A stretch of 64,000 nt of DNA from a virus. Where the stretch lies: positions 417 to 64,416 of IMG/VR virus record IMGVR_UViG_3300007516_000010. One strand, given 5' to 3'. Both the position numbers and the translations under genes were made by a program. This document shows positions 35,956 to 58,089 of this stretch, in pieces; the stretch's first letter is position 1, and every line of letters begins with the position of its first letter. The notes beneath the pieces are model-generated. The model searched no databases and was not told where the DNA came from. It saw nothing but the letters and a program-made list of their open reading frames with translations.

Positions 35956-36140
35956 TGGATAAATTTGGCGTGATTCAGCCTGGCCGGACACCTGATCCCG
36001 AAGATTCTAAGAAATCGAAGGATAGGGGCAAAAGTGCAGCCGAGCTAGATAATGGTATCCTTCGGGACGTCGCTGACCGCACGCAGGATCATCTGCGATC
36101 CAGAGCAGCCGACCCGAACGACCACCAACCAACCGGCTAG
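35952..36140 (+). CDS. small protein upstream of the portal (KSA motif)
   Basis: 62 aa, ATGA coupling, MDKFGV...GKSAAE. Confidence 0.6.
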   Translation: MMDKFGVIQPGRTPDPEDSKKSKDRGKSAAELDNGILRDVADRTQDHLRSRAADPNDHQPTG

Positions 36141-36141
36141 C

Positions 36142-38031
36142 ATGTACGACAAGCTCACCTCATTCGATTGTCCCGGTAACGCACGGTACAGCGGTAACGG
36201 CAGTAGTGCCGCTTACCCGAAGAACTTCCTGGATTACGCTAGCACCGCCGTTCCGCAGACGTTCGCGGAGTTACTGGACTGGTCTGAATACGCGTTCTTG
36301 GCCACGGGCGACTACAAGTCTCTTTTCGAGCGGCTATACAACTACTTCATCACTGAGCTGAAGATCTCGTCGATTGACAACGCTAAGAAGCCGATGGATG
36401 AAGAGACCGCGAACGAATGGCGGCAGTTGCTCGAAGACGATCTCAACTGGGGCGAGGTCGCGGCCAGTATGATGCTCAATTTGGGTGTCTACGGTAACGA
36501 TTTTATCTCTGTTTACGCACCTATTCGCCGCTTTCTAGATTGCCCGAATTGCGGGCTGCGGATTGATATGAAGACGCTGGCTGACACTAGCGGCAGTGAT
36601 TTCGGTTATCGCAGCGGTAAGTTCACTGCCAGGTGCGTGGGCCAGAAGTGCCGACGAGAGAACCGCGGCACCGAGATATGGTCGCCGCATGATTTGCGAT
36701 CAAGCCGCCCTGAAGACTTCAAGATCAAGCAGTGGCCGACTCGTGAGATGATTATCCATCATTACGCTTGGACCGACCGCACTATTATTTACTGGCGAAT
36801 TCCTGAGCACTACAAGCGAGCGGTGCAGTCAGGCGACGTTGAGACACTTGCCGAAGCCGATGTCAACGTGCTTGAGGCTATCGAGAAGAACATGTTGTTC
36901 AAGTTCCGTGATGATCGAATCTTTCATGCGAAAGAGCCGACCATTACGGGACTGCAAACGCGTGGCTGGGGTTTGCCGAGGTCGATTTTTCTTAACCGTC
37001 AGGGCTGGACGCTGCAGCTATTAAGAAAGAACACGCAGGGGTTGGCACTGGACTGGGTGATGCCGATGAAGATCGTCTCGCCGTCTGCGCAAGCGGTTCC
37101 GGTTGGGCGGGGTAATTCGATGAGCCCTTCGGCGAGCGTTAATCAAGCCGACTTTTCTCGCATGTTCGCTAAGGCGGTTTCGTCTCACCGCAGTAATCCG
37201 ACGAGTTGGCAGGCAATGCAGATGCCAGTGGACGCTAATATCCTTGGTGGCGACGCCAACCGGCTGTTTCCTGCGGACATGATCCGTCACGCCAAAGACG
37301 AGTTTCTCGACGCCGGCGGGTTTCCTGTGGAGATGTACCGTGGCACGTTAACGTTGCAGACCGCTCCGGTCGGACTTCGCCTGTTCGAGGCCACCAACAA
37401 ATCAATCCCGTCGATTCTTAACCGTGCGGTGAAATTCATCAGCGGACGTGTCTCTGAGTTGGCCAGCCGCGACCCGGTTGTCTGTAAGCACGAGCGAGTC
37501 TCGATTACTGACGATTTGGAAACGCTAATGATGCAGACGCAGATGGCTATGAGCGGAGCTTTGGCGATGAGCGAACCGATGCGACGCATGGGCGTTGACT
37601 ACCGTGACAACGCACGTCAGACGATGCGTGAGACAGAAATCACGCAGGAGCTTCAGGAAGCTGCCCAGGAAGAGCAGATTAAGCGACAGCAGTCCAACGC
37701 GGCGATGGCGACTCCACCTGCGGGTGGAGCCGATCCGGCTGCGGGCGGTGCCGCTCCGGCAGAAGGTGGCGATCCGGCTGCTAACCCAATGGCAGGCATG
37801 CTACCCAGCACAGGGTATGTGCCACCAATGGCGCCAGACCAGATGGAAGAGGCAGCTACGGCGTTGGCCCAAACGCTCGCCGGGATGGACCCGATGTCAC
37901 GGGACCGCGAGCTAAAGATCATCCGCGACCGTTACCAGACGTTCCACGCGATTGTAAGGACGCGGTTGGAGCAGGCGGATCAGCAAATGGGGCAGCAGGG
38001 GCGTCAGATGATGATCGGACAAGGCGGTTAG
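36142..38031 (+). CDS. probable portal protein with an inserted Cys4 zinc ribbon
   Basis: ~630 aa; helical N-terminus, VYGNDFISV, FHAKEP...GWGLP, Q/M/A-rich low-complexity tail; CPNC...CVGQKC insert; call rests on general resemblance and context. Confidence 0.55.
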   Translation: MYDKLTSFDCPGNARYSGNGSSAAYPKNFLDYASTAVPQTFAELLDWSEYAFLATGDYKSLFERLYNYFITELKISSIDNAKKPMDEETANEWRQLLEDDLNWGEVAASMMLNLGVYGNDFISVYAPIRRFLDCPNCGLRIDMKTLADTSGSDFGYRSGKFTARCVGQKCRRENRGTEIWSPHDLRSSRPEDFKIKQWPTREMIIHHYAWTDRTIIYWRIPEHYKRAVQSGDVETLAEADVNVLEAIEKNMLFKFRDDRIFHAKEPTITGLQTRGWGLPRSIFLNRQGWTLQLLRKNTQGLALDWVMPMKIVSPSAQAVPVGRGNSMSPSASVNQADFSRMFAKAVSSHRSNPTSWQAMQMPVDANILGGDANRLFPADMIRHAKDEFLDAGGFPVEMYRGTLTLQTAPVGLRLFEATNKSIPSILNRAVKFISGRVSELASRDPVVCKHERVSITDDLETLMMQTQMAMSGALAMSEPMRRMGVDYRDNARQTMRETEITQELQEAAQEEQIKRQQSNAAMATPPAGGADPAAGGAAPAEGGDPAANPMAGMLPSTGYVPPMAPDQMEEAATALAQTLAGMDPMSRDRELKIIRDRYQTFHAIVRTRLEQADQQMGQQGRQMMIGQGG

Positions 38032-38604: not shown

Positions 38605-40272
38605 ATGGCATCAACACGCGGCGACGTTAATATCCACGCGGTACCAGGTGGCAAGGACTATCTCAAACAGACGATGGCTTCTCGTTACAAGGCGACGCTG
38701 CGTAAGTCGCCGCAAGCGGGAATGGCTTCTCCCGTCGGCGTGATCTCGCCAGCTACCCCGATAGCGGGAGAGGTCGTCAAAAGTGCTTTTCAAATTAACA
38801 GGGAGGCATTGTTCCAAGAAAACCCCTCCTACGGGTGGCAAGTAACCGGGAGTGGGGGTGGAAATGGGTCATTTCCAGTAGTTGGTGGGTATGACGCTGT
38901 GCTTCATTCAGCTGCAGTAAAAATCGCTTTTCTAACGACCTCTACCGGTCATTCAGACGGTTGGACCGGCAAATTAGCGGGAATCAGCGAGTTTGCCGGG
39001 AACCGTTCGGTCACTCTTAAACACGCTTTTAGCCCTTGGAGTGCCGTTAAGAGCGTTACTGACCCTGTCTGGGAAGCAGGTTACGGTGCCGCGGACAGTA
39101 CCGTCAGTGCGATACGCAACGCACCTCGTGCGGTGATGAACGCGGGTTCGGCGTATAAGCATCAGTTCAATCGGATGTACAACCCCTATTCGCAGGCTTG
39201 GAACGAACCGGGGATGAGCGGAGACAATATTGGAAGGGCGGCAATGGGGGCCGGATTGGGCGCCGGGGCACTTGCAGCCGGGATGGTTGCCGGACCTGCG
39301 GCAGCTGCAGGCGGTGCTGCCCAGGGAGCGAGAGCACTGCTTACAGGCGGCATGCAGGTTGTCCGTAACATGGCTCCTACCGCGATTAGGCAGGCAGCAC
39401 AAAAGACCGTGGCAGCTTCCCCGACAGCGGCCAGGCTAGCTCAGGCCAGTGGCCGCGGGCTTCAGGCAGTTCAGCAAGGGGCCGGGAAGGCAGTGCAGGT
39501 AGTTAAGCAGGTTGCAACCAATCCTACAGTTGTTGATGCAACGAAGCGGTTGGGTTTTGGCCAAGGGTACGGCTACGCGGGCGATTTTGCGGGTAGTGCG
39601 GCGGATACAGTAGCCGGCCAGGCTGGTATTGACACCAATGGATGGGGGCAGGCGATTGGCGGGAACTACGGGTTTTTTCGCGGGCTTGGCAAAGGGATAC
39701 CGGCGGCGGGACCGCTCGGTTCGTTACTGAGCCGTACAGAAAAGAAACTTAAACCGGCGGCGGGACAACTGACCACGTACGGAATCGGTGATGCGACTAT
39801 CGGAAAGATGCAGGAAGAGCTTACTGACGGCAATATGAACATGTTTCGCCCTACAGATTCGTATCTAAACGCGCAGGATGCGGTATCTCGCAGGATGGAT
39901 GCCACGGTGTTGGAAGCCACCGGCATGACCGTTCCGCAGATAAGGGAGATGGCGGACCGGGCTAAGCCACTTGTAGAGCAGGCATATCAGGAGTACGGCC
40001 CGCTCCCGCAGCAACCTTACGCGACTCCGGCATCAACAGCGACCGTAGCCCGACCGCAACCACCGCAACCACCACAACCAACGCAGCAACCGCAACCACC
40101 GCAACCAACGCAACCACCACAACCAACGCCGCAACCGCAACCAACACAACCAACGCAACCAACGACCGTACCCGCTTCTTTGCCGCGAGCAGGTGCCAGC
40201 GGCCTTAGCGGACGTAGACCAGGCGAGAGCACAACTAATTTCATCTCGCGACTAGCTGAAGGCGGTAGCTAG
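38605..40272 (+). CDS. Gly/Ala-rich probable virion (internal) protein with K-x-A motifs and a Gln/Pro/Thr tail
   Basis: VKSAF, VKIAF, LKHAF; GAGLGAGALAAG; QPPQPT repeats. Confidence 0.65.
   Translation: MASTRGDVNIHAVPGGKDYLKQTMASRYKATLRKSPQAGMASPVGVISPATPIAGEVVKSAFQINREALFQENPSYGWQVTGSGGGNGSFPVVGGYDAVLHSAAVKIAFLTTSTGHSDGWTGKLAGISEFAGNRSVTLKHAFSPWSAVKSVTDPVWEAGYGAADSTVSAIRNAPRAVMNAGSAYKHQFNRMYNPYSQAWNEPGMSGDNIGRAAMGAGLGAGALAAGMVAGPAAAAGGAAQGARALLTGGMQVVRNMAPTAIRQAAQKTVAASPTAARLAQASGRGLQAVQQGAGKAVQVVKQVATNPTVVDATKRLGFGQGYGYAGDFAGSAADTVAGQAGIDTNGWGQAIGGNYGFFRGLGKGIPAAGPLGSLLSRTEKKLKPAAGQLTTYGIGDATIGKMQEELTDGNMNMFRPTDSYLNAQDAVSRRMDATVLEATGMTVPQIREMADRAKPLVEQAYQEYGPLPQQPYATPASTATVARPQPPQPPQPTQQPQPPQPTQPPQPTPQPQPTQPTQPTTVPASLPRAGASGLSGRRPGESTTNFISRLAEGGS
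40050..40165 (+). repeat. degenerate CAACC-based tandem repeat (QP/QT)
   Basis: CAACCACCGCAACCACCACAACCAACG... read directly. Confidence 0.8.
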
Positions 40273-44810: not shown

Positions 44811-44851
44811 AAGGGCACCCAGGAGCCGTTCCGGGTGCCCTTGTTTCATTT
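44811..44851 (+). terminator. stem-loop, probable terminator
   Basis: AAGGGCACCC/GGGTGCCCTT followed by GTTTCATTT. Confidence 0.65.
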
Positions 44852-44909
44852 CTGGCGGAATTGTTTCAGCAATTCCACCAGCGTTTCATTAAACCATCAG
44901 GACCGATCC

Positions 44910-47405
44910 ATGATTCCGGCAATCAGTACCAATTCTTTTGCGTCGTTCGGGATGTCCGGCGGCGGCAAATGCACGATGCGCAACGCCTCCCATTTGCAGC
45001 AGTTGTTCCTTGGAAAGATTTATGCGGATCCACTGCACGCACTTGTACGCGAGCTATGGCTAAACGCCATCGACAGCATGATTCAGGCGGGTCGGCCCGA
45101 GGTTCCGATCGAGGTTTCGCTGCCAAACTTATTGTCGCCGGTTTACCGGGCGAGGGATTTTGGCGTCGGAATGACGCACGACCAGTTCGAGGCCATCTAC
45201 AGTGACCTGGGCGGCTCTACTAAACGCAGTGATGCCGCCGTCACTGGTTCGTTAGGCCTTGGCTCCAAGAGTCCGTTAGGCTACGCGGACTTGTTTAACG
45301 TCTCCTGTTACGACGGAGAGACGGTTAGACATTACCTGATCTCTAAAGACGTCGACGGCGACATGATGTGGGTCCCTGTCTCATCGTGCCCCAGTGACGA
45401 ACCGCAGGGAGTCGAGGTAGTCGTTCCGATTAAGACTGGCGATACCGCTAAGGTTATCCATCACTACTACAAGATCTTGTCGGCACTGAACCATCCCAAC
45501 ATGCCGCAGGTAGCGGTGCCAAACGTGACTGGGTTATCCGGTGCTCGACCAGAACCAACGGACTGGTCAGACTATCCCTTGACCTCGCCGACGGTTTCGT
45601 TCGACGCGTCTAACAGCCGAACAACGTCCTTTCGGTTCTTTATGGGTAATATCGAATACCGCGCGAACCTCGAAGCGATGGTCGCGAACGCATCGAAAAC
45701 CTGGGAAGACCACCGGGAGCTAGTACTGGCGACCGCCCGTGAGCTTAAGATTGCCGTCTTTGCACCGATGGACGCCTCGCATGGTCATTGCCCGGTGGAC
45801 TTCGACGCCGGACGTTACAACGTGCAGCCGACCGCGAGGTCATCTGACTGGGTCATGTCGCAGCTTGTCGAGGCGGCTGAAAAGTACTGGAAGGCACAAG
45901 TAGCCAGGCTCAAAGCGGCGGACGGCTTGCTGCAACGGTGGTCGCTGTTAGCGTCGCTTGATAAGCAGTACACCGCGGCTATTTTTAAACACCTGGTAGC
46001 ACGTGCGGGGGTCACCGGCGACGCTCAGTTGCTTATTCCAGTTAGTAAAAGCCCGCTCAATTTGTTGCTGGAAGCGGCTGGCGACCAGATCGGTACGGGC
46101 TGGTTGCCTAGGACCTACACTTCAGGCGGCTCCGACATGCGAGATGTGTCCCAGAAAATGGCTGGTAAACGGCTGGCCAATCACGCAAAAACGAGGGCGA
46201 GAGTGGACGACTTCGTGTCATTGACTAGGCAGCTTCGGAGTTCCACCGCCTCGGTGCTAATCATCGACGAGCCGAATAGCTGGCGGCAGCGGTATGAAGC
46301 GGATTATGACGCCCGTTTACCGGTTTTCACGGTGGCTTATGAAGAGTTAGTCGCCGGTAAGCTTGTGCGTAAGCCGACAGCGGCGTCCGCATTTAATCTT
46401 CGGCGGTATTTAGAGTCTCACGGCGTACAGGTAACGCAGGTCAGCGAGTTGCCGGTAATCGAGCGATCTCGTACGGTGAAGCTTAAACGGCGTGAGAAGC
46501 AGTTCACGCTGCAGCAGTGCTACACCGTCAATTCGTCGATGTTCAATTATCCAGCAAGTGTCTTCCGTCCTTACAGTGGCTACGGTGGCGACACGGACGA
46601 TAGGTTTCTTTTGCTCCGCGTAAATGGACACAGGATCGAAACGTCACCGACGTCTGGGTGGTGTGAGGTGAGTGCTACATGGCATGAAGGTATCACCGCC
46701 GCGATGGCAACCGACTTAACACGTAGCGACACGCAGCACTACAGCGATTTACTCGCTTACCGGCTTTCGGGAGTCAAGTCGTCTGCGATGCCGGACAACT
46801 GCGACGACTTGTTCGTTTATTTGCGGGAGCAGTATCAGTGGCATCTACCGCTGCTGGAGTGCGCAGCCTTGGAGCGGCATTTAAGGGCGGCGTTAAACAA
46901 CGCTGACGTCATGGAGCATATTGAGGGCGACACACCGTTTGGCGAGGGTCGTCCGCGGATTCAGACGCCGGTTAACTGGATGCGGTCGATGATGCAAATC
47001 TTCGGCCATCGGATGCGGTCGCACATCTGCCGTTTCGAGAAGGTATGCGTAGCCTTCTTCGGGCAAGAATACATCGAGAAGCAAGACCAGTGGAAAGCAA
47101 AGAACGATCCGGTATGTCGACAGCTGGCCGAGAACTTTGTCAAGCAGTACCCGCTCTCGCCGATTCTTCCTTTCGGAAACTTTCGAGATACGGTAAAGAC
47201 TTACCCACAGATGGCCCACCGGCTGGACCGCAAGGACCATCTGACGGCTAAGGACATCCCTAAACTGCCGATTCTGCCAGAGTCCGAATTGCTGACGAAG
47301 CTAGTACCCGATCTGCCGCATTTTGTCTCGCTGACGTCGTCAAGCTATTCTGGCTGGCTAAAGCGAGACCAAGTATGCAAGACGAAAGTGTTGACGAATT
47401 CGTAG
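44910..47405 (+). CDS. rIIA: rIIA-like protein (N-terminal GHKL ATPase domain)
   Basis: VRELWLNAIDS, RDFGVGM, GSTKR...GSLGLGSKSPLGY, GVEVVVPI; adjacent to rIIB; start moved to ATG 44910. Confidence 0.78.
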   Translation: MIPAISTNSFASFGMSGGGKCTMRNASHLQQLFLGKIYADPLHALVRELWLNAIDSMIQAGRPEVPIEVSLPNLLSPVYRARDFGVGMTHDQFEAIYSDLGGSTKRSDAAVTGSLGLGSKSPLGYADLFNVSCYDGETVRHYLISKDVDGDMMWVPVSSCPSDEPQGVEVVVPIKTGDTAKVIHHYYKILSALNHPNMPQVAVPNVTGLSGARPEPTDWSDYPLTSPTVSFDASNSRTTSFRFFMGNIEYRANLEAMVANASKTWEDHRELVLATARELKIAVFAPMDASHGHCPVDFDAGRYNVQPTARSSDWVMSQLVEAAEKYWKAQVARLKAADGLLQRWSLLASLDKQYTAAIFKHLVARAGVTGDAQLLIPVSKSPLNLLLEAAGDQIGTGWLPRTYTSGGSDMRDVSQKMAGKRLANHAKTRARVDDFVSLTRQLRSSTASVLIIDEPNSWRQRYEADYDARLPVFTVAYEELVAGKLVRKPTAASAFNLRRYLESHGVQVTQVSELPVIERSRTVKLKRREKQFTLQQCYTVNSSMFNYPASVFRPYSGYGGDTDDRFLLLRVNGHRIETSPTSGWCEVSATWHEGITAAMATDLTRSDTQHYSDLLAYRLSGVKSSAMPDNCDDLFVYLREQYQWHLPLLECAALERHLRAALNNADVMEHIEGDTPFGEGRPRIQTPVNWMRSMMQIFGHRMRSHICRFEKVCVAFFGQEYIEKQDQWKAKNDPVCRQLAENFVKQYPLSPILPFGNFRDTVKTYPQMAHRLDRKDHLTAKDIPKLPILPESELLTKLVPDLPHFVSLTSSSYSGWLKRDQVCKTKVLTNS

Positions 47406-48382
47406 CCATCTTCGGCGACGGCGGGAAGATAGCAAAGCTGGCCGCCGAATTACCGGCGGTCAGCCAAGTTACGTGGCCAGATCCTTACGAGATCACTGAG
47501 CTACGGGAGTTGGCCAAGCAGGGCAACGCCGTCGCTCTTGCGATCTACGGACTGCACGATCGTTTCCAGGGAAACGACCCTAAGACATTCTTTCACGCTA
47601 TTAAAGTGGCCGGGGAGGTCAGCGAACAACTACAGAAACTAGCGGATTCCCTGATACCGCCCGCTCGCGACGTGATGACCAACTTCAAGTCGCCGTTCGA
47701 TCGCGACCCGAAGCGGTACAGTTCGATACTGGATCAGGCCGGTACGGTTGCCCAGTGGTGGCCAGGGACGATCGGCGGCGTCCCTAACTTGCCAGGTCCG
47801 CTTTCGAGCCTGGCGGTGATGGGTACACTCGGCGCTGGTGCCGGGAACCTGACGGGTAGGTTGCTTGCCAATCACCCAGCATTTGATCCAGAGACGGTAA
47901 CTAGCCGGGCGACGATGATCGGCGGCCTGCTGGGGTTACTTCCTGGGGCGGCGTCCATGGGAATGAACGCTTTGGCTGGCAAGTCGTTGCTGGGTGACAA
48001 CGTATTGGGGATGCAGAAGCGTTCTCTGTTAGATCCGACGCTGTTCTCACGCCCTAACTTGATTCCGGTTGAGCAGCTGCAGCAGATGGTTTGGGAAGAC
48101 CCCGACGTCGCTGGCCGTCTGCCCATTCACATTGCGGCGGCAACGTCGGCTCTTGTCGAAGGGGCTAGTCGGCAGAGCCGCAGCGAAACTCCGTTTATCA
48201 CCCCTGGCGATATTGCGAGAATGGCTGTGGGCATGGGTTCCGGCTACACTAGCGGCTTATTGGTCGGTAAGGCCCTGGGCGGGCTGTTCGGAGTTTCCGA
48301 CGCAGCTCAGCAGGTACTGCGTCGCTCCGGAGCGGCAGCCGGTCTTTTACAGACATTTGTACCGTTAGCTTTTGGTGCGTAG
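47375..48382 (+). CDS. probable virion protein (K-x-[AS] motif, Gly/Ala-rich helices)
   Basis: IAKLAA, MQKRS; GTLGAGAG, GLLVGKALGGLFG. Confidence 0.65.
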   Translation: MQDESVDEFVAIFGDGGKIAKLAAELPAVSQVTWPDPYEITELRELAKQGNAVALAIYGLHDRFQGNDPKTFFHAIKVAGEVSEQLQKLADSLIPPARDVMTNFKSPFDRDPKRYSSILDQAGTVAQWWPGTIGGVPNLPGPLSSLAVMGTLGAGAGNLTGRLLANHPAFDPETVTSRATMIGGLLGLLPGAASMGMNALAGKSLLGDNVLGMQKRSLLDPTLFSRPNLIPVEQLQQMVWEDPDVAGRLPIHIAAATSALVEGASRQSRSETPFITPGDIARMAVGMGSGYTSGLLVGKALGGLFGVSDAAQQVLRRSGAAAGLLQTFVPLAFGA

Positions 48383-48772
48383 ATGACATTCTTAAAGGGT
48401 TCCACCGGTCTTTGGCTTCCCGGCTCGGCGGACAGTAACTGTACGGAAGCCAGAGGGGTGAGTTTCTACGCGGAGAACGGCATGGTGTGCATGCGTAAGG
48501 AGCTGCCAGACGGTAAAGAGGAGTTTAAGCAGTTGGCCCCCAGCGAGGCCAGGATACGCATGCAGGCGCTCGTAGAGGTTGCCAAGCGATCAAGCGACGT
48601 CCACGGGCCGAACCATTCCCAGTCTAAGTTTTACGAAAACTTTATCGACGGGTATAAACGAGCCATCGTTGCGGCAGAAGAGCAGGGTCCGTATGAGGAT
48701 CCCAGCAGTCGTCGAGACCGCGTCAACCGCCGTCCGAAGTCGTTCGCGATGCCCTCTAAAAGCCTGGAATGA
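48383..48772 (+). CDS. hypothetical protein
   Basis: 129 aa, starts immediately after the previous stop. Confidence 0.65.
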   Translation: MTFLKGSTGLWLPGSADSNCTEARGVSFYAENGMVCMRKELPDGKEEFKQLAPSEARIRMQALVEVAKRSSDVHGPNHSQSKFYENFIDGYKRAIVAAEEQGPYEDPSSRRDRVNRRPKSFAMPSKSLE

Positions 48773-49317
48773 TCATGTCCACTGCCGAACAACGCGCTAA
48801 GCTCGCCGCCGATATGCTGGGAACCCTAGTTGATGCGGGGTTGAGTAGGCAGGAAATGATTAGCATGCTGTCGTTCTCCGCTGACGTCCTGGAGAAGCAG
48901 GCATCGCAAGGAAAGACGCTTGACACCATGGAGTTGGACAAACAGTCAGGTTTGTTTGGTGCATTGGCCGGAGCGTTGCCGATAGATGCGATCAAGGATA
49001 TCGCTCTTCGCGGGGCGGACAAGGTGTTTGGGCTTGGCGAGCGTGTAGTAGGCAGTGCGTTGGATACGACCATGAAGTATTCGCCACTGATTGCGGGAGC
49101 TGCGTTGGCGACTCCGGTGATCGCAGGTTACGCCGCAGGTCATGGGATAGGTACTGGCAGCGACAACGGCGATGAGATGGTTCGATCGATTCACCAGCGA
49201 GAATTGGTTTCGATGCTGCGGGAGAACGCGAGGCTAGCTGAGCAGACTCGCTTGGTTGAGGAGCAGCGACAGAAGCAGTTGGCAGGTAAAAAGCGACCAC
49301 GCCGTTTCGCTGGCTAA
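48769..49317 (+). CDS. probable virion protein (K-x-[AS] motifs)
   Basis: RAKLAA, LEKQAS, LDKQSG; hydrophobic Gly/Ala helix. Confidence 0.65.
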   Translation: MIMSTAEQRAKLAADMLGTLVDAGLSRQEMISMLSFSADVLEKQASQGKTLDTMELDKQSGLFGALAGALPIDAIKDIALRGADKVFGLGERVVGSALDTTMKYSPLIAGAALATPVIAGYAAGHGIGTGSDNGDEMVRSIHQRELVSMLRENARLAEQTRLVEEQRQKQLAGKKRPRRFAG

Positions 49318-49323
49318 AGCGTG

Positions 49324-49351
49324 TCGCCGACAAAATCGATTTTGTCGGCGT
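49324..49351. repeat. 28-bp dispersed palindrome, copy 8 (compensatory G-C to C-G swap)
   Basis: core CGCCGACAAAATCGATTTTGTCGGCG (49325-49350) is still a perfect palindrome. Confidence 0.92.
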
Positions 49352-49410
49352 GAACCCGGAAGTGGCTAGCTGGTACATTGCTTGTGGTATCACTCCACAG
49401 GCGAGAAACA

Positions 49411-50007
49411 ATGCACGATAATCAATCCAGCGATCAAACTCTCAGCTATCAGCATTTCGATCGCGAGCATGTTCCGTTCAGCGGTCAGATGCCGCAACTG
49501 ACTGCGGCAGAGTACTCACAGATCACACGTCGTGTACGGATATCGGGCTATGGGTTGTTTGACACGTCGGACCCGTCGCAGCGATATTTTGGGAGAACGC
49601 TGGCAGATTTGCTTAATCGTGCCGCACTAGAACAATACGAGCTCACGGTCTGTCAGCCGTATCATTTTGTTGACGGGGCCGGCACTAATAAAACGCTACG
49701 CTTTTATCTTTGGGTGATGTGGTATGAAAAAGTTGATCTCGATGCCGCAGCTGCCCGTAAGTTCTCCGAAACGGGCGTCCTTGACACCGAACCTGTTGTC
49801 GAAATTGTCACAGACGCCGACGTCGACGACGGCCTCAAAAACCTCGGCGGATCCGACCACGGAAGCTTTGCTGCGAGCGGCCAATCTCGACGCGTTCAAC
49901 AAGATTATCCCCAATCTAGTTCGTTATGGGACCGCGTTCGCCACAGGCGGAGCCGCTCTCGCTGGCTTGAACCGTCTGACGAAATTGCGAACCGAGCAGG
50001 AGATTGA
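49411..50007 (+). CDS. hypothetical protein (3' end overlaps the next ORF)
   Basis: start moved to ATG 49411. Confidence 0.55.
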   Translation: MHDNQSSDQTLSYQHFDREHVPFSGQMPQLTAAEYSQITRRVRISGYGLFDTSDPSQRYFGRTLADLLNRAALEQYELTVCQPYHFVDGAGTNKTLRFYLWVMWYEKVDLDAAAARKFSETGVLDTEPVVEIVTDADVDDGLKNLGGSDHGSFAASGQSRRVQQDYPQSSSLWDRVRHRRSRSRWLEPSDEIANRAGD

Positions 50008-50617
50008 CAACGAAGAAAGCAATTCGCAGAACCAGTTGATCCGCGTGATGAAGCATGCCGAAACAGGCTGGTGGGATGCGATTAAAGGCGGTTTGCAGGC
50101 AGGCAACCCGGCTGCCACATCACCACATGAGTTTCCGATCTACGCACCGGCCGTTGGCATGACGATCGGGGCAGGGCTGATAGGCGGATACAAAGCGACC
50201 GACATGGTTCTTTCTCGATTGCGAGACAGGGCGGCCAAGAAAGAGATAGCACAGGCACGCAAGGAATACGAAGACGCTATTTTCGGTGCTGGCGGCGGTA
50301 GTGGTGTCAAGCTTGCAGGGACCGGCGGCAGCGAACTATCAAGGCAGTTAACTCGCTTTGTAGATGCGGTGACGGCGATGTTACCGCACGACAAGACAGC
50401 CTTAAGCCCTGATGACGCACAGCGGATGACTGGTTCGCTTGCGGGACTTTATCTACTGCTTGCTGGCGGCGGTTTGACTGCGGGAGCTTATCACGGCTAC
50501 AAAGCACAGCGTCGCAATAGCGACATTGCGGCGGTCTCCCGGGCAAACAAAGAGCGGCAACTGGCCGACAACCGCCCAGTAACGCTGCTGCCGACGGTTA
50601 TTTCTCCCCCCAGCTAA
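49724..50617 (+). CDS. probable virion protein (K-x-A motifs); true start uncertain
   Basis: MKHAE, VKLAG, DKTAL; Gly/Ala hydrophobic helices. Confidence 0.65.
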   Translation: MKKLISMPQLPVSSPKRASLTPNLLSKLSQTPTSTTASKTSADPTTEALLRAANLDAFNKIIPNLVRYGTAFATGGAALAGLNRLTKLRTEQEIDNEESNSQNQLIRVMKHAETGWWDAIKGGLQAGNPAATSPHEFPIYAPAVGMTIGAGLIGGYKATDMVLSRLRDRAAKKEIAQARKEYEDAIFGAGGGSGVKLAGTGGSELSRQLTRFVDAVTAMLPHDKTALSPDDAQRMTGSLAGLYLLLAGGGLTAGAYHGYKAQRRNSDIAAVSRANKERQLADNRPVTLLPTVISPPS

Positions 50618-50638: not shown

Positions 50639-53600
50639 ATGCTGCAGCCGCCCGTATCTCCTGGTTCGGCGGCTCAGCCAGCCGCGATTTCTCCTATCAA
50701 ACCACGCTCGCCGCTGATGCCATTGGCGGACTCTCCCGGCGAAGAAATGCCAGTGGGCGTTAAGCTGCGAGCGACAGACGATCCAGACGCTTTACGTACC
50801 GGCGTTTACGACTCGGTGCTGGCAGCGGCTAGCTCGATGCCTCCAGCAGTGAGTAACACGCACACGCTCAAGCTGACGGATCTGCATTACGCTGAGGATG
50901 ATCCTGAGTTCAACGCCACCGACGAGAAGAAGGCGATTCTTTCTGGCAGTAGTCTGAGTCGTCGGTTACGAGGCACGTGGCGGTTGTTTGACAACGGCAC
51001 AGGTGGCGAGATCGCTGAGCGTAAAGCGACTGTTGCTAACGTCCCGGCGATTCTGCGAGACGGCTCGTTTCTTCGCGGCGGAACGCGGTACACGATGGGT
51101 GTGCAGCAACGGTTGCGTCCAGGTGCGTATGCTCGCTACCGCAAAAATGGGGAGGCCGAATTGCACGTTAACGCCCGCCAGGGCACCGGGCGTAGTCACC
51201 GTTACGTGCTGGAGCCCGAGACAGGGCACTTCTCTGTGCATGTTGAAGGGGCGAAGATTCCGCTCGTGCCGCTGTTAACTTCGCTGGGCGTTACCCGTGA
51301 CCAGATGGAGAGTGCTTGGGGCAAGGAGCTGACGGACAAGAACTTCGCAAAGCAGGATCCTAAAGCGATCGGTAAATTCTATGACCGCTTTGTCCCTAAG
51401 TCGCAGCAGAACGCAGAGGACCGGTCGAATCCTGAGATGGTTCAGGCGAAGATTCGCGAAGCGTTTGAAAAGATCGAGCTGGATGACGAGGTCGTTGGTC
51501 ACACACTTGGCAGGGCCACGGGCAAGGTAGACGCTGACAATATTCTGCGGGGCACGACCAAGACGCTGCGGATGTTGCAAGGGCAAGAAGATGCCGACGA
51601 CCGAGACAACCTGGCGTTTGCCAGCTACCACGGGGCACCCGAGATATTCGCTGAACGGTTCATTAAAGATTACGGACGGTTCCGCAAGGAACTGCTTTAC
51701 AAGGCGTCACGTAAAGGCACGCTGGACAACGTCCCTTCAGGGGCTTTGGACAAGTACATCAACGCGGCAATTTTCCGTAGCGGACTTGCGCAAGGGTCCG
51801 AAGAAATAAATCCGTTCGAAATTCTCGCCGCTGGAACCAAGGTTACGCGGTTCGGCGAGGGTGGTCTTCCTGACACACTGTCGGCACCTGATGAGTCACG
51901 AGAAGTAAGCCCGAGTCAGTTCGGATTCATTGACGCGGTGGTATCACCGGAGACTCTCCGCATCGGCATTGACGGTTTCTTGGCTCGTGACACGTTCATC
52001 GGTGACGACAACCGGCTGTACAGCAAACTGCTGGACAGCAAGACCGGCAAGACGGTGCTACGGAGCCCCAATCAGTTGCTCAACAGCACCACTGCGATTG
52101 GAGCCTCACCGATCCCTGGCTGGGAGCTAGCGATGCAAAAGGGTAAGTTGCGGATGGTGAAGGAAGGCACCGCCGAATACCGCATCCCCAGCATGGAAGA
52201 CACGTTCGGTCAGTTAGCCAGTTTCACCCCGATGAAATCTGGCATGTTTGGTCAGCGAACTTCAATGGCGAGTCGTATGGCGGCACAGGCTTTGGCTATC
52301 GATAACGCCGAGGCTCCGCTGGTGCAGACGGGCGTACCGGGTGATGCGGATGAGTCGTTCGAGGAGCGACTGGGTGTACGCCTGGGTGCGATCCGCGCCG
52401 AAGAGCGAGGCCGTGTTCTGGAGGTTTCGCCTGACCACATCTTGGTGCGTTACGCCCACGGCAAAGACAAGAAGTTCAGCCTGGACAACAATCGGCCTGG
52501 AGCCCGCAAGAGCGTGTTCCATCACGACCCGATGGTTTCCGTCGGCCAGGAAGTCGAACCCAATCAGATGCTCGCTAAGAGTAACTACGTTGATGACAAA
52601 GGCACAGCGGCACTGGGCACCAACGCCCGTACGGCATTGATGGCGTGGGACGACGCGTTCGAGGACGGCATCGTAGTTTCGCAGTCGTTCGCTGACCGCG
52701 TGCGGGTACAGCAGGCGTACAAGCACCGTATTCAGCCTGGCGAAGGCGAGAAGGTAGATAAGAAGTCGTACCTGCAGGTGTTCGGCAACCGGTACACAGG
52801 CGACCAGCTCAAGGCGATCGACAACGACGGTGTGATTCGCATCGGTACCACAGTCAAGAGCGGCGATCCGTTGATCCTGGGCGTCCGCAAGCGTGACGGA
52901 GCCAAGACCCGTGTGCATCGGCAGAGCAAGATGGACTTTGGTGACTCCAGTATCCGCTGGGATCACCATAGTGAAGGCGTCGTCACCGACGTGTTCCATA
53001 GCGAGAAAGGTTCGCAGGTTGTTGTCAGGTCGTCTAAATCCCTGGAAGAGGGCGATAAGCTTTGCTACGACGAGCTGACTGAAGTGTTGACCCGCACAGG
53101 TTGGAAGCTCGTCGCGGATCTCCGGTTTGACGATGAGATTTGCTGTCGGAGCGAGGATGGCGGCATCCGCTACGACAAGCCGACCAAGCTTTATCAATAC
53201 GCGACTGGCGGACGGATGTACCGGATAGAGTCGCAACAGATCGACCTGTTCGTTACTGCGTCGCACAACATGTTTGTGCAGCGACGTAATGGTAAAGCAT
53301 TCGAGTTGTTGCCTACGACGGCTATCGCAGGCAAGCGTGTTCGATACGCCAAGTCAGGTAGCTGGGCAGGCAAGAGTCCGGAGTATTTTGAATTCCCTGC
53401 GATGCGAGTAAAGGCAGGGCAGTCTGGTCGCGGGTCACGAGACTTACCGGCGATCCGCTGGCCGTTACGCACGTACCTGATGCTGTTAGGGGTGTACCTG
53501 GCTGACGGCAACTGTTCCAAGCAAGTAAAGAAAGGGAACTGGTTCGTTGACATCACGAAGATCAAAGAGCCAAACCGCACGCAGCTACGGGAGGCATTAA

Positions 53601-56176
53601 CCGCGGCTGGCATTAAGTTCCATGAAGCCGCCGGTGGTACCAAAGTTCGTATCCAGAGCAAGCAGCTGTACCAGCACTTCCAGCAATTTGGCCGGGCATG
53701 GGAAAAGTTTATCCCTGCCGAAGTGTTCGATTACGCCAGGGAAGACCTGGAGTATCTGTTCCAGTGGCTGATGTGGGGCGACGGGCACGCCGGCGATAAG
53801 TGGCCGATCAGCTACTCATCGACGTCTAAACAGCTGGCAGATGATGTCAGTCGCTTGCTGCTCCACATCGGCAAGGCAGGCAACGTCAGCTTTAAAGATC
53901 CGGAAGACTGCGTGATCCGTGGCAAGCAGTACAAATGTCGTCGATGTTATTCCGTGGGAATCATCAACACCAAGCTGACGCCGCAGGTAAATCACTCGCA
54001 CGTCAAGAAGCAATCCGCACAGACGGAAGAGTACATCGACGGCTACGACAAGCCAGTGTTCTGCGTGGAAGTCCCGACGCACGTGCTGTATGTCCGCCGC
54101 AACGGAAAGGCCTGTTGGTCTGGTAACTCTGGGCGTCAGGGAAACAAGGGCGTGATCACGGTCAAGCCCGACGAAGAGATGCCACAGGGTGAAGACGGTA
54201 AAGCGATCGAGGTAATCTTTAGTCCGCTGTCAGTACCCAGCCGCGGTAACAGCTCGTTCCCACTGGAGATGTTGCTCGGCAAGATCGCTCGCAAACGAGG
54301 CCAGGCGTACAAGATCAAGGACTTCAAAGGCGAAGACTTGCAGCAGATGGTTCTCAATGAAGCCGACAAGTACGGCGTCAGCGACACCGAGACCTTCATC
54401 GATCCTGCGACGGGTAGAAAGATCAAGGGCGTGTTGTCAGGCGACATGTTCTTGATGGCTCTTCACCACACGGCCGAATCGAAACAGAGTTCTCGCGGGC
54501 TGGGGAAATATTCCGCAGAAGATTCCCCCGCAAAGGGCGGAGAAGAGGGTGCCCAAGCGAAGAGATTCAGTGGCCAGCAGCTTTGGGCTGGGCTATCTCA
54601 CGGAGCTTATGCCACGTCCAAGGAAGCGTCACTGCTGCGTGGAACCCGCAATGACGATTACTGGTCGGCGTTCATGGCCGGCAATCAGGTCGCTCCTCCG
54701 AAGGTTCCTGTCCAGTACAACGCGTTCATGGACAGGCTCCGCGCATCGGGCATCAATCCGGTCCGCAGGGGCACCCAGACGCAACTGATGGCGATGACGG
54801 ACAACGACGTCCGAGACATCGCTGGAGACCGCGTCGTACGCGTTAACGACACGGTAGAAGTCCACAAGGACATGAAGCCCGTGCCGGGCGGTCTGTTCGA
54901 TCCGCGACTATTCGGCGATGGGACTCGCTTCGCAGCGATCGAGTTACCCGAGCGGATGCCCAACCCTGTCTTCGAGGAGCCACTGCGGCGACTGCTGGGT
55001 TACACCGAGAAGGATTTCAGGGAAGTGCTGGGGGGTAAAAAAGAGATACCTGGTTTCGGCAGCGGTCCTGACGCGTTGTTCAAACGCCTGGAGCAGATCG
55101 ACGTTCCCAAGGAACTTTCCCGTGCTCGTAACGAGATCGCTGGCACTCGTAAGGTAGCTCGCGACGCAGCGGTCCGGCGGCTGGGGTATCTGAAGAACTT
55201 CGAGAAGACCGGTACGCATCCGACGGATCTGATGATCTCGATGGTTCCGGTGATGCCACCGCGGCTGCGTCCGATCTCCAAGCTTGGCGGCAAGGGCGGC
55301 GTCGTGATCAGCGATCCCAACTTTCTGTACCGCGAGTTGATGCAGGCCAATGATGTGGTCAGCGAGCTCAAAGGTAAGGTCGACGACATCTCCGACGAAC
55401 GGCTGGCGGTTTACGATGCTCACAAGGCACTCGTTGGTGTCACCGACTCGACCAACCGCGAGTTACAGCAGCGGAAGGTCAAAGGGATCATCAAGCGTCT
55501 TGTGGGGAGCAACCCCAAAAGCGGAGACATGCAGAGGAAGCTGCTCAGTGGCAACGTCGATACGGTCGGCCGCGGCGTGATCATGCCTGACACGTCGCTG
55601 GACATGGACAGCTTCGGTTTACCCGAGGCGATGGCGTTCAACATGTTTGAACCCTACGTCGCGAGAAACCTGTCGCTTAAGGGGATTCCCCGTATACAGG
55701 CGATGGAGCACCTTAAGGCCAGGGACAGTGTTGCCCGTAAGGCATTGCTGGAAGAGATAGGCAAACGACCGGTGTCGCTTAGCCGTGCACCGATTCTCTA
55801 CAAGTATGGCGACATCGCTTTGTTGCCGCAGTTGGTTAAGGGAGACACGATCAAGCTCAATCCGTTCGTGGTCAAGGGCCTCGGCGCCGATTACGATGGA
55901 GACGCTGTCAACCTTAACGTCATGCACGGACGCGAAGCGGTAGCTGAAGCGATGGACAGGATGTTGCCCAGCCGCATGCTGTTCGCCACCAAGGACTTTA
56001 AGAGTCCGATGTTCACACCCAGCCAAGACATGCTGCTGGGACTCAACAGGGCTTCCCAGCCAGCAAAGAAGGGAGCCAAGACCCGTTACTTCGCTTCCTT
56101 TGAAGATGCCAAATCGGCACTGAAGCGAGGTGACATCGACCTTGACACACCTGTTCGGTTTCCGAAGACACCGTGA
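50639..56176 (+). CDS. rpoBC: single-chain multisubunit-type RNA polymerase: beta fused to the N-terminal/catalytic part of beta-prime; contains an intein
   Basis: beta motifs RTSMASRMAAQA, MAWDDAFEDGIVVS, GDKL|SGRQGNKGV, SPLSVPSRG, KRFSGQQLWA; beta-prime motifs GLFDPRLFG, VPVMPPRLRP, LLSGNVDTVGRGVI, LSRAPILY, catalytic GADYDGD, SQDMLLGL. Confidence 0.92.
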   Translation: MLQPPVSPGSAAQPAAISPIKPRSPLMPLADSPGEEMPVGVKLRATDDPDALRTGVYDSVLAAASSMPPAVSNTHTLKLTDLHYAEDDPEFNATDEKKAILSGSSLSRRLRGTWRLFDNGTGGEIAERKATVANVPAILRDGSFLRGGTRYTMGVQQRLRPGAYARYRKNGEAELHVNARQGTGRSHRYVLEPETGHFSVHVEGAKIPLVPLLTSLGVTRDQMESAWGKELTDKNFAKQDPKAIGKFYDRFVPKSQQNAEDRSNPEMVQAKIREAFEKIELDDEVVGHTLGRATGKVDADNILRGTTKTLRMLQGQEDADDRDNLAFASYHGAPEIFAERFIKDYGRFRKELLYKASRKGTLDNVPSGALDKYINAAIFRSGLAQGSEEINPFEILAAGTKVTRFGEGGLPDTLSAPDESREVSPSQFGFIDAVVSPETLRIGIDGFLARDTFIGDDNRLYSKLLDSKTGKTVLRSPNQLLNSTTAIGASPIPGWELAMQKGKLRMVKEGTAEYRIPSMEDTFGQLASFTPMKSGMFGQRTSMASRMAAQALAIDNAEAPLVQTGVPGDADESFEERLGVRLGAIRAEERGRVLEVSPDHILVRYAHGKDKKFSLDNNRPGARKSVFHHDPMVSVGQEVEPNQMLAKSNYVDDKGTAALGTNARTALMAWDDAFEDGIVVSQSFADRVRVQQAYKHRIQPGEGEKVDKKSYLQVFGNRYTGDQLKAIDNDGVIRIGTTVKSGDPLILGVRKRDGAKTRVHRQSKMDFGDSSIRWDHHSEGVVTDVFHSEKGSQVVVRSSKSLEEGDKLCYDELTEVLTRTGWKLVADLRFDDEICCRSEDGGIRYDKPTKLYQYATGGRMYRIESQQIDLFVTASHNMFVQRRNGKAFELLPTTAIAGKRVRYAKSGSWAGKSPEYFEFPAMRVKAGQSGRGSRDLPAIRWPLRTYLMLLGVYLADGNCSKQVKKGNWFVDITKIKEPNRTQLREALTAAGIKFHEAAGGTKVRIQSKQLYQHFQQFGRAWEKFIPAEVFDYAREDLEYLFQWLMWGDGHAGDKWPISYSSTSKQLADDVSRLLLHIGKAGNVSFKDPEDCVIRGKQYKCRRCYSVGIINTKLTPQVNHSHVKKQSAQTEEYIDGYDKPVFCVEVPTHVLYVRRNGKACWSGNSGRQGNKGVITVKPDEEMPQGEDGKAIEVIFSPLSVPSRGNSSFPLEMLLGKIARKRGQAYKIKDFKGEDLQQMVLNEADKYGVSDTETFIDPATGRKIKGVLSGDMFLMALHHTAESKQSSRGLGKYSAEDSPAKGGEEGAQAKRFSGQQLWAGLSHGAYATSKEASLLRGTRNDDYWSAFMAGNQVAPPKVPVQYNAFMDRLRASGINPVRRGTQTQLMAMTDNDVRDIAGDRVVRVNDTVEVHKDMKPVPGGLFDPRLFGDGTRFAAIELPERMPNPVFEEPLRRLLGYTEKDFREVLGGKKEIPGFGSGPDALFKRLEQIDVPKELSRARNEIAGTRKVARDAAVRRLGYLKNFEKTGTHPTDLMISMVPVMPPRLRPISKLGGKGGVVISDPNFLYRELMQANDVVSELKGKVDDISDERLAVYDAHKALVGVTDSTNRELQQRKVKGIIKRLVGSNPKSGDMQRKLLSGNVDTVGRGVIMPDTSLDMDSFGLPEAMAFNMFEPYVARNLSLKGIPRIQAMEHLKARDSVARKALLEEIGKRPVSLSRAPILYKYGDIALLPQLVKGDTIKLNPFVVKGLGADYDGDAVNLNVMHGREAVAEAMDRMLPSRMLFATKDFKSPMFTPSQDMLLGLNRASQPAKKGAKTRYFASFEDAKSALKRGDIDLDTPVRFPKTP
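53063..54127 (+). mobile_element. 355-aa intein with LAGLIDADG homing endonuclease
   Basis: N-terminal CYDELTEVLTRTGW, block B VTASHNMFV, LLGVYLADG and LMWGDG, C-terminal VFCVEVPTHVLYVRRNGKACWSGN followed by Ser; removal restores GDKLSGRQGNKG. Confidence 0.92.
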
Positions 56177-56268: not shown

Positions 56269-57546
56269 ATGAATAGCCACCACAAGTACACAAACGCCAA
56301 CTTCCGCAACGCCACGCTGGTTGAAGCGTACCGGCTGTACCTCAACAGCAATGACAAGAAGCTATTGACGTCGCTAATGACTGTCGACAACAAGTTTAAC
56401 GAAGAACTCTATGAAGCGACCGTTTCCGGCCAGGGGACAGGCGCAGAATTCGTCAGTGAGCCGGCCTTTGTACCGATCTGGCGGTCACAGACGAATTCCG
56501 CGCACAACCTGGTGAAGGCCGGACTGGCGATGCAGTCCACGCAACTGTTTGAAGGACTCCATAAACCTTGCGTCGCAATTACCAGGATGGGTCACCTGAT
56601 TGCTGCCGGACTGATTTACGGCGGAGACGCTTGTACGGCAGACCCCGAGTTTAATCATTTCTATGAGCCGATCGTGGGTATCCAGGCGAAGCTGGCGAGG
56701 GAGGGTAAATCAGCCGACCTGGCGGAGGAGCTGGCAGCCGTCTCGAAGGAGGCTACCAGTCTTAAAAGTTTATACCGCAAAACGAAAGACGCGATCGTTA
56801 ACGCGATGAGCTTGAATACCACTCTCGCGACCGAGCGGGACCTGTGGACTAAGCGGGCCTATGAATTGCAAAAGGAAGCGGTTTCCACGAAGAAAGAAAC
56901 CGCCGTAAATACGGCTAAACTGAAGGCTCAAATAACCCAACTGCACGTCGCGACGGACGAGCAGATTAAGCGACAAGAAGCGCATAACCGTAAAGTAGCT
57001 GATGATTCGGCGAGCATCGTCGTTGAGCGGGACATGTTGCTTCGGCAGGTCGCCAGACTGGAAAAGGCTTCCGTTTCGGCGAGGGAGTCAACCGATAGAA
57101 AGATAGCCACACTGACGGCCCAGCTGGCAGAATCGCAAGACGCGTTGGCACAGAAACCGCAGAGGCAAGCGGCGGAGGTTGCGATTCTGCAGAAGCACCT
57201 GACAACCGCTTGCGTCCAGTTAGAGGCGGCGACGACGAAGATTTTTGAGGCGGAACGCGCCGCCATCCCGGACAAGAAGCAGGCCGCTACCATATTAGCC
57301 GCTGTAGAGTTAGCGTTAGCCAAGGCAGAAGCCGCGTTAGAGGCGAAGACGCAAGAGCTGGCTAAGGCACAAACGTTGGCCGCGAAGCTGGTGAAGAGCA
57401 AGTCTGTTACTGTTACGAAGCCAGCCGCCAAGACACGCAAGCCTGCCAAGCCTGCCAAGCCTGCCAAGCCCGCTAAACCCAGAGCGAAGAAGTCCAAACT
57501 GGGCGAAGGTTTAAACCTTAACTTTGACTGGACAGGAAAAAAGTAA
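56269..57546 (+). CDS. coiled-coil protein with a histone-H1-like KPA tail
   Basis: 425 aa; heptad-rich; KPAKPAKPAKP near the C-terminus. Confidence 0.7.
   Translation: MNSHHKYTNANFRNATLVEAYRLYLNSNDKKLLTSLMTVDNKFNEELYEATVSGQGTGAEFVSEPAFVPIWRSQTNSAHNLVKAGLAMQSTQLFEGLHKPCVAITRMGHLIAAGLIYGGDACTADPEFNHFYEPIVGIQAKLAREGKSADLAEELAAVSKEATSLKSLYRKTKDAIVNAMSLNTTLATERDLWTKRAYELQKEAVSTKKETAVNTAKLKAQITQLHVATDEQIKRQEAHNRKVADDSASIVVERDMLLRQVARLEKASVSARESTDRKIATLTAQLAESQDALAQKPQRQAAEVAILQKHLTTACVQLEAATTKIFEAERAAIPDKKQAATILAAVELALAKAEAALEAKTQELAKAQTLAAKLVKSKSVTVTKPAAKTRKPAKPAKPAKPAKPRAKKSKLGEGLNLNFDWTGKK
57439..57480 (+). repeat. 9-nt tandem repeat (AAGCCTGCC) encoding KPA
   Basis: three exact and two degenerate units. 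Confidence 0.85.
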
Positions 57547-57627
57547 CAGCTGTTCCTCGTTGATTTAAGTGACGCGTTTAGGGAGGAGTAAGAAGGATTT
57601 AGTCACTCACTACAAGGAACGGGCAAC

Positions 57628-58089
57628 ATGCCTCGCAAGACGGAACACTACAGGATATTACGCGGAAAGGTTCGCATAGAAGAATATTTCTGTGACAAGA
57701 TTAGCGACACTGTCGAGTCAATAAAGGGTGTCAACCTCATGCGTATTGCGAGGGATGAATCGCTAGCACGATTAAAAGCGAACCCGCGTTGCGGTTTAGC
57801 CACAGGAAGCACTGACAGCGAGGAATGGTTTGAGTCTGTGAACACCACCGGCTCAACAGCTGCCGGTATGGGGTCGTCCGTTTATTTACCAAGCCGCGAA
57901 GAGATTGCCGCCGCGTGTGCAGCATTCCGCGTACGCGACCCACGGGGTTCCGTCTATGGGGGTTCACCCGACTACGACATCGGCGTCCAGTTCCCGACTT
58001 TCAACGACCTATCCACTCGACGTACCACGATCCCGGAAGACGATCGAAAATGCGACTGCCCTTACTGGGGTACCGAAGGAAAAGAATGA
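57628..58089 (+). CDS. hypothetical protein
   Basis: 153 aa, SD AAGGA. Confidence 0.6.
   Translation: MPRKTEHYRILRGKVRIEEYFCDKISDTVESIKGVNLMRIARDESLARLKANPRCGLATGSTDSEEWFESVNTTGSTAAGMGSSVYLPSREEIAAACAAFRVRDPRGSVYGGSPDYDIGVQFPTFNDLSTRRTTIPEDDRKCDCPYWGTEGKE

Follow-up and report, generated by a model that had tools for sequence, protein, structure and literature searches.

An uncultured phage contig of 96,941 bp, estimated to be 49% complete, carries a gene in which the sequences of the RNA polymerase beta and beta-prime subunits run together in one frame. The stretch of DNA analysed here (the window, 64,000 nucleotides) corresponds to bases 417–64416 of this contig (IMG/VR record IMGVR_UViG_3300007516_000010), and the gene occupies positions 50639–56176 of the window. 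Its frame stops shortly after the catalytic loop of beta-prime. An earlier note on this DNA proposed a minimal single-chain enzyme without the zinc ribbon, the bridge helix and the trigger loop. We found the C-terminal half of beta-prime in a separate gene further downstream on the same contig. Taken as a whole, the most convincing explanation, which we regard as likely, is a two-chain core of the bacterial type that has an intein-spliced large chain and no zinc sites, and that is packaged in the virion and ejected from it.

Composition of the large chain

The whole open reading frame (ORF) lies on the + strand, is a single open frame with an ATG start and encodes 1845 amino acids (aa), comprising beta, the N-terminal half of beta-prime and one predicted intein. 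The N-extein (residues 1–808, 50639–53062, + strand) consists of an N-terminal extension followed by beta and ends at the conserved GDKL motif. The C-terminal part of beta (residues 1164 to ~1385, 54128–54793, + strand) begins with SGRQGNKG and extends in alignments as far as the C-terminus of bacterial beta chains. The last part (residues ~1386–1845, 54794–56176, + strand) is the N-terminal, gamma/RpoC1-like half of beta-prime, with the clamp core and the catalytic double-psi beta-barrel.

Profile searches gave the same order of domains. In one frame, Pfam matched Rpb2_6 (two pieces around the intein, E 1.8e-38) with LAGLIDADG between the pieces, and then Rpb1_1 and Rpb1_2, which confirms the claim of the earlier note that beta runs directly into beta-prime. 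Among the PHROG profiles, phrog_24349 (beta, bacterial-like phage type) matched first along the chain and phrog_25354 (beta-prime of that type, positions 139–541 of 1216) second. In the alignment to PDB chains, residues 78–767 are co-linear with Thermus beta 65–757/778, and residues 1164 to ~1412 reach the end of bacterial beta chains. Judged by these alignments, the beta portion is complete and compact. Homology to beta-prime starts at residue ~1409, and therefore the two subunits are joined with essentially no linker. The chain stops 90 residues past the catalytic loop, at the equivalent of about residue 555–560 of the 624 residues of gamma (the PDB alignments cover gamma up to residue 553–555); the early ending had been recognised before, but its distance from the loop was given as about 80 aa. 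The identical 1845-aa protein was called on 8 contigs from different samples, and the gene is therefore not an assembly artefact.

Residues 1 to ~68 (50639–50840 of the window) form a variable extension of ~70 aa rich in proline, serine and alanine, which is not alignable to the corresponding proteins of Salmonella phage Arash or Vibrio phage D69. It may serve as a signal for packaging or processing; alternatively, translation may in fact begin further downstream.

The predicted intein is of the LAGLIDADG type and covers residues 809–1163 (355 aa, 53063–54127, + strand). These borders were assigned because the alignments with Arash gp206 and D69_0261 stop at residue 809 and restart at residue 1164, and because an 88%-identical homologue (P0002, 1488 aa) has no insert, its junction reading GDKLAARQGNKG. 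The insertion site is the conserved lysine motif of beta, GDKL|SGRQGNKG, whose two parts are found at residues 805–808 and 1164–1171. The insert contains C809, a TxxH block (TASH), the LAGLIDADG motifs LGVYLADG and LMWGDG, and N1163, and it is followed by S1164 as the +1 nucleophile. Pfam LAGLIDADG_3 matched it with an E value of 4.6e-6. Except for the penultimate histidine, which is discussed below, these features fit a class 1 intein with a LAGLIDADG homing endonuclease. Protein splicing would remove the intein and leave a mature chain of 1490 aa, the length that the earlier note had given and that the intein-free homologue and the Arash and D69 alignments support. All 9 cysteines of the ORF fall within the intein.

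Inteins were also seen in other members of this polymerase family, which is heavily invaded by them, with up to three per chain (for example P0241, 3350 aa, and P0183, 3089 aa). Recurrent sites in the homologues are located directly after the catalytic DxDGD loop and in an RQNLLGKR-type motif, near residue 1629 of the present protein.

The second chain and the zinc sites

The bridge helix and the trigger loop are absent from the large chain, as the earlier note stated, but they are not absent from the enzyme. When the whole contig was searched with Rpb1_5, one match was obtained (contig 85594–86163), which lies within an ORF of 631 aa on the + strand, outside the window (contig 85066–86961, or 84650–86545 in extended window numbering). 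The search for a separate beta-prime C-terminal ORF that the earlier note had suggested thus succeeded, and this gene, 28.5 kb downstream of the fusion gene, removes the basis for a single-chain enzyme. The 631-aa ORF matches positions 677–1098 of phrog_25354 and aligns to bacterial beta-prime over the bridge helix and the trigger loop, and both motifs are clear. On the continuous beta-prime of Streptomyces, the large chain ends at ~629 and the 631-aa chain begins at ~662. The cut is therefore clean, with nothing essential missing. The 1490-aa chain and the 631-aa chain would together form a two-chain multisubunit core of 2121 aa, which is smaller than bacterial cores and larger than the smallest published pairs of the mReC phages (~1000 + 900 aa).

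The catalytic Mg-binding loop reads GADYDGD (residues 1749–1755, 55883–55903, + strand), the variant that had been read from the window before. It aligns to NADFDGD of gamma and retains all three aspartates. The beta-prime zinc ribbon is missing, also as previously claimed. At its place (residues 1418–1437, 54890–54949, + strand) GLFDPRLFG runs straight into AAIELP without any cysteine, and the distance from GLFDPRLFG (1418–1426) to the next conserved block is 45 residues versus 120 in cyanobacterial gamma. The extein lacks cysteine entirely, which rules out a Cys4 ribbon. The second beta-prime zinc site belongs to the C-terminal half, and its four cysteine positions read A, S, Y and D in the 631-aa chain. 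Both beta-prime zinc sites are thus lost in this phage. The absence of the Cys4 ribbon is family-wide.

An AlphaFold model was built for residues 1164–1845 only, on 41 family sequences. It reached a mean pLDDT of 81.9 and a pTM of 0.71, and the stretch without the ribbon was modelled with pLDDT above 90. The best fold matches of the model were cyanobacterial gamma and plastid RpoC1 (TM 0.60–0.62 by target), and the best sequence matches of the N-terminal part of beta-prime were likewise cyanobacterial gamma and plastid RpoC1.

Other core subunits were searched for in the contig and in the complete Arash and D69 genomes. Alpha (RNA_pol_A_bac) and omega (Rpb6) gave no match in any of the three, with positive controls. 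One unsplit beta match only was found in the contig, and the complete Arash and D69 genomes each have one beta and one beta-prime C gene. The T7-like single-subunit polymerase family (PF00940) gave no match either, but its control set was likewise unable to give one, so that this negative carries no information. In the absence of an alpha dimer, the covalent link between beta and beta-prime may take over its function in assembly.

Directly after the beta-prime C gene there is an ORF of 787 aa (contig 86995–89358, outside the window), which matches no Pfam or PHROG family. Two relatives have ORFs of 801 and 786 aa at the same relative position. The 787-aa ORF contains 13 K-x-A motifs versus 3.9 expected, and its product may act as a conserved partner or have a structural role.

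Distribution of the two chains and comparison with known polymerases

The two chains are both widespread. The C-terminal 682 residues of the large chain retrieved at least 488 protein clusters (90% identity) with the fusion, and the 631-aa chain retrieved at least 572 clusters. The best 120 fusion clusters all have lengths of ~1450–1530 aa, or exceed these through additional inteins, and the contigs that carry them reach 216 kb. When the N-terminal part of beta-prime was searched exhaustively and without a profile, 1266 representatives had E values below 1e-30. In the full-length proteins of the top 150 (50% identity), the match to beta-prime N ends a few residues from the C-terminus, and their chains are at least 1440 aa long; ~30 shorter ones look like fragments, and those split by inteins give one stretch only. 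In hundreds of homologues at 44–88% identity the start, the junction and the C-terminus are unchanged, and the last 682 residues have 66 invariant columns and a mean column identity of 62%.

The genes for both chains co-occur on long contigs. They are spaced by 4.5 kb on a 216-kb relative, by 4.8 kb in Arash and by 0.6 kb in D69, and the 28.5-kb separation in the present phage is an exception. In Arash and D69 the polymerase genes adjoin the portal gene. The layout defines a large family of phages, most of which are uncultured; the cultured members are Salmonella phage Arash and the Vibrio phages D69, D148 and D181. In some members a NUDIX domain (PF00293, from precomputed Pfam labels) is embedded in the large chain or in the beta-prime C chain (P0007, 1906 aa; P0357, 917 aa). 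A 71%-identical relative has a reverse transcriptase gene (RVT_1) 4 kb upstream of its beta-prime C gene (951–2900 of that sequence).

Fusions of beta to beta-prime are known from cellular enzymes. In the natural full fusions of Helicobacter and Wolbachia, and in the engineered rpoB-rpoC fusion of E. coli, beta is linked through its C-terminus to the N-terminus of beta-prime, two ends that lie close to each other in the enzyme. These fusions carry the whole of beta-prime and still use alpha and omega. In the phage chain, unlike in them, beta-prime is cut again after the catalytic domain. Such a cut after the catalytic barrel is found in cyanobacterial and plastid polymerases (gamma/RpoC1 + RpoC2; PDB 8syi, 8gzh, 8ras), and the alignment of the 631-aa chain with RpoC2 starts at the N-terminus of the latter. 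However, the gamma-like piece of the phage enzyme is attached to beta, and its end falls ~65 residues before that of gamma. The cyanobacterial and plastid enzymes are also larger, whereas the enzyme of this phage has neither of the two zinc sites, no alpha and no omega. The likeness of the split site is not in itself a demonstration of common descent.

The closest described counterparts are Arash Gp206 (1525 aa) and Gp216 (606 aa) and the proteins of Vibrio phages D69, D148 and D181 (OQ632216.1, OZ195729.1; PMC10585845), which have the same layout of beta + beta-prime N and beta-prime C. The present phage shares with them a large chain of ~1450–1530 aa that ends after the barrel and a separate beta-prime C chain of ~600–650 aa. 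It also shares the lack of the Cys4 ribbon (1–2 cysteines in the large chain of the relatives), the single enzyme set, and the lack of alpha and omega. The relatives differ in that they are only 25–29% identical and have no intein in the large-chain gene. Arash and D69 retain C, C and CxxC of the second beta-prime zinc site, at which the clade of this phage has A, S, Y and D. The intein in the active-site motif of beta, the unusually distant beta-prime C gene and the complete loss of both zinc sites are specific to this phage. In the published annotation Arash Gp206 is named just "beta subunit", and the D69 gene is "hypothetical".

The earlier note had pointed to the phiKZ-like phages and the mReC lineage as known systems, and the layout of neither is that of the present genes. 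The phiKZ/AR9 jumbo-phage polymerases (PMC7598289, PMC8287921) resemble the enzyme described here in that they have no alpha and no omega, their beta-prime is split after the barrel, and one version is packaged. They differ in that beta is divided into 2–3 chains, there is no beta/beta-prime fusion, there are two paralogous sets and an extra subunit gp68, and there is no sigma; phiKZ gp74 retains the second beta-prime Cys4 zinc site. PHROG profiles of the phiKZ type matched the large chain with E 1e-8 versus 1e-48 for the bacterial-like phage profile. Membership in the phiKZ-like group was rejected because of the different layout and the much weaker profile scores.

The mReC group (Weinheimer and Aylward 2020, PMC7481178) consists of uncultured tailed phages of large size, whose beta and beta-prime are compact, bacterial-like and still alignable to cellular enzymes. 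On the contigs of their Supplementary Data 2, beta (~900–1560 aa) and beta-prime (~900–1390 aa) are separate and mostly adjacent, none of the listed pairs shows a pattern of ~1470 + 620 aa, and the paper mentions no fusion, split or intein for these enzymes (PMC7481178). Membership in mReC was not adopted because the gene layout differs.

A review of jumbo-phage polymerases treats the post-barrel split of beta-prime as common to phiKZ/AR9 and cyanobacteria and describes no beta/beta-prime fusion (PMC7598289). The fusion of beta to the N-terminal half of beta-prime is not described in the comparative jumbo-phage paper or in a 2026 review, and no description of the two-chain layout was found in the literature searched, in which subscription journals were thinly covered. 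The polymerase belongs to a large variant of the phage multisubunit RNA polymerases that is effectively undescribed.

Virion association and competing explanations

The enzyme is probably carried in the virus particle, as argued from a relative and from amino acid composition. In gradient-purified virions of Arash, Gp206 was the most detected protein (3516 spectra), above the major capsid protein, and Gp216 (1210 spectra) and the sigma protein Gp10 were detected in the virion preparations too (PMC10585845). The composition of the two chains points in the same direction. There is no cysteine in the 2121 mature residues versus 1.34% in the other + strand ORFs of the phage (P about 4e-13). Cysteine is also absent from 87 of the 94 fusion homologues (10 cysteines in 138,711 residues) and from 95 of the 96 beta-prime C homologues (1 in 61,057 residues). 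That both mature chains are free of cysteine is a new observation.

The same composition is found in proteins known to be ejected. The N4 virion RNA polymerase gp50 (3500 aa) and its partners gp51 and gp52 are carried in the virion, ejected and fully free of cysteine (phage N4 34523–47523; PMC13434306), as proposed for the polymerase described here. N4 gp50 differs in having an unrelated fold (single-subunit, with a T7-like catalytic domain) in one chain and in belonging to a podovirus; a loose fold inside the capsid and refolding once it has been ejected were proposed for it (PMC13434306). Of the ejected proteins of T7, gp15 and gp16 have no cysteine and gp14 has one, versus 12 in T7 RNA polymerase (phage T7 27728–34551). 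Cysteine makes up 1.5–2.2% of the N4 non-virion polymerase, 1.4–2.2% of the non-virion polymerases of N4 and T7 taken together, and 1–2.7% when replication proteins are included. The cysteine-free composition, shared with known ejected proteins, supports packaging and ejection. Cysteine-free ejection proteins were not mentioned in the literature searched, with the same thin coverage of subscription journals. The earlier note had based packaging on the K-x-A protein cluster upstream of the gene. Packaging is plausible, but that argument is weak: the three upstream ORFs have 10 K-x-A motifs versus 5 expected, and because of this weak enrichment the motif was not used as evidence.

Taken together, the enzyme would be a virion component that is ejected along with the DNA and could then transcribe early genes independently of the host polymerase. 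A build without zinc and cysteine would suit loosely folded passage through the tail and the envelope, followed by refolding. Whether the family polymerase as such is built for capsid packaging, loosely folded tail passage and refolding free of metal and disulfides, with the total absence of cysteine in large proteins as a general signature of ejection, is a more tentative proposal, to which we give somewhat less than even weight. If it is true, the signature would predict ejected proteomes from sequence alone, and in this genome it would mark out the ORF at 38605–40272 together with the three ORFs that precede the polymerase gene.

Other explanations have to be weighed against the packaged two-chain enzyme. 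That the large chain is by itself a minimal polymerase working without bridge helix and trigger loop fits its early stop and the lack of any further beta-prime sequence in the window, but the 631-aa ORF of the same contig carries the missing half with both motifs, and this chain is as widespread as the fusion, occurs on the same contigs and is present in Arash and D69. We consider a self-sufficient single chain very improbable. An assembly or annotation artefact, or a decaying gene, in which rpoB and rpoC were joined by a frameshift or in a chimera and beta-prime was truncated, has practically no chance of being correct. In favour of it, a single metagenomic contig may be a chimera, and the distance between the two genes is unusually large in this phage; however, the same protein was recovered on eight contigs from separate samples, hundreds of homologues share its start, junction, C-terminus and invariant columns, and the isolates Arash and D69 have the layout.

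An unlikely, though not negligible, explanation is that the two-chain enzyme is real but works inside the cell in middle or late infection, so that the Arash signal is carry-over and the lack of cysteine has a different origin, for example habitats that are oxidising or poor in zinc, or resistance against host factors that target thiols. The authors of the Arash study themselves raised that abundant intracellular enzymes might contaminate virion preparations (PMC10585845). The single polymerase set of the complete relatives presumably also serves late transcription, unless the host enzyme does. In addition, 12.6 kb separate the fusion gene of the present phage from its portal gene, whereas in Arash and D69 the two are neighbours. 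On the other side, carry-over has to account for a protein detected above the major capsid protein and for a gene in the head or portal neighbourhood in both isolates. The cysteine-free pattern agrees with that of proteins known to be ejected and differs from that of the non-virion N4 and T7 polymerases, and the three ORFs just upstream of the gene are cysteine-free as well.

Besides the possible contamination and the distance from the portal gene, several other points weigh against the packaged, intein-spliced two-chain enzyme. The presence of the chains in virions is documented for Arash alone, which is 28–29% identical to this phage, and the cysteine comparison used two control phages, both podoviruses. 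The intein ends in ...WSGN|S, with a glycine in place of the penultimate histidine, and its splicing is predicted. Polymerase activity and the completeness of the subunit set are predicted. Finally, Sigma70 region 2 or 3 gave no match anywhere in the 96.9-kb contig, which is estimated at about 49% of the genome; the statement of the earlier note that neither alpha nor sigma is encoded in the window extends to the whole contig. Arash and D69 each encode a small Sigma70_r3 protein at ~11–12 kb, and because both complete relatives have such a protein, a sigma-like factor may sit in the missing half of this genome. BLASTP of the Arash sigma Gp10, helicase Gp217 and the structural proteins Gp4, Gp8 and Gp218 gave no match in the contig, and therefore no sigma or accessory subunit is assignable in this half-genome. 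A phage sigma-like factor from the unsequenced half would probably be the partner of the polymerase.

The surroundings of the gene are those of a phage genome with nearly every gene of the contig on the + strand. The recognisable genes include an SbcC-like ATPase, a family A DNA polymerase of 1173 aa with an N-terminal UDG-superfamily domain (residues 97–253; 18775–22296), a portal homologue (36052–38031) and an RIIA-like gene (44835–47405). Three Gly/Ala-rich ORFs free of cysteine lie 5' of the polymerase gene on the + strand, spanning 47375–50617 (47375–48382, 335 aa; 48769–49317, 182 aa; 49724–50617, 297 aa). Pfam and PHROG scans gave no family for the ORFs in 47375–50617 or in 56269–58089. 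A fourth Gly/Ala-rich ORF without cysteine is found at 38605–40272 (555 aa), also with no Pfam or PHROG match. The four cysteine-free ORFs are possible candidates for internal, co-packaged or ejected virion proteins.

The family bears on what a multisubunit polymerase requires. Cellular-type polymerases are thought to need the platform of the alpha dimer and two structural zinc sites in beta-prime, and this lineage dispenses with all three. Its core of ~2120 aa is a minimal one that occurs in nature and lends itself to studies of structure and mechanism. The cut of beta-prime after the barrel occurs here too, in a piece fused to beta, whether it was inherited or arose recurrently. Annotations should avoid calling the large chain simply "beta subunit" and should connect the 631-aa chain with it. 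If the cysteine-free signature is general, it would be a cheap predictor of ejected proteins. The lineage is very common in environmental metagenomes and has cultured members, and its enzyme is likely a new model for multisubunit polymerases that are delivered together with the DNA of the phage.

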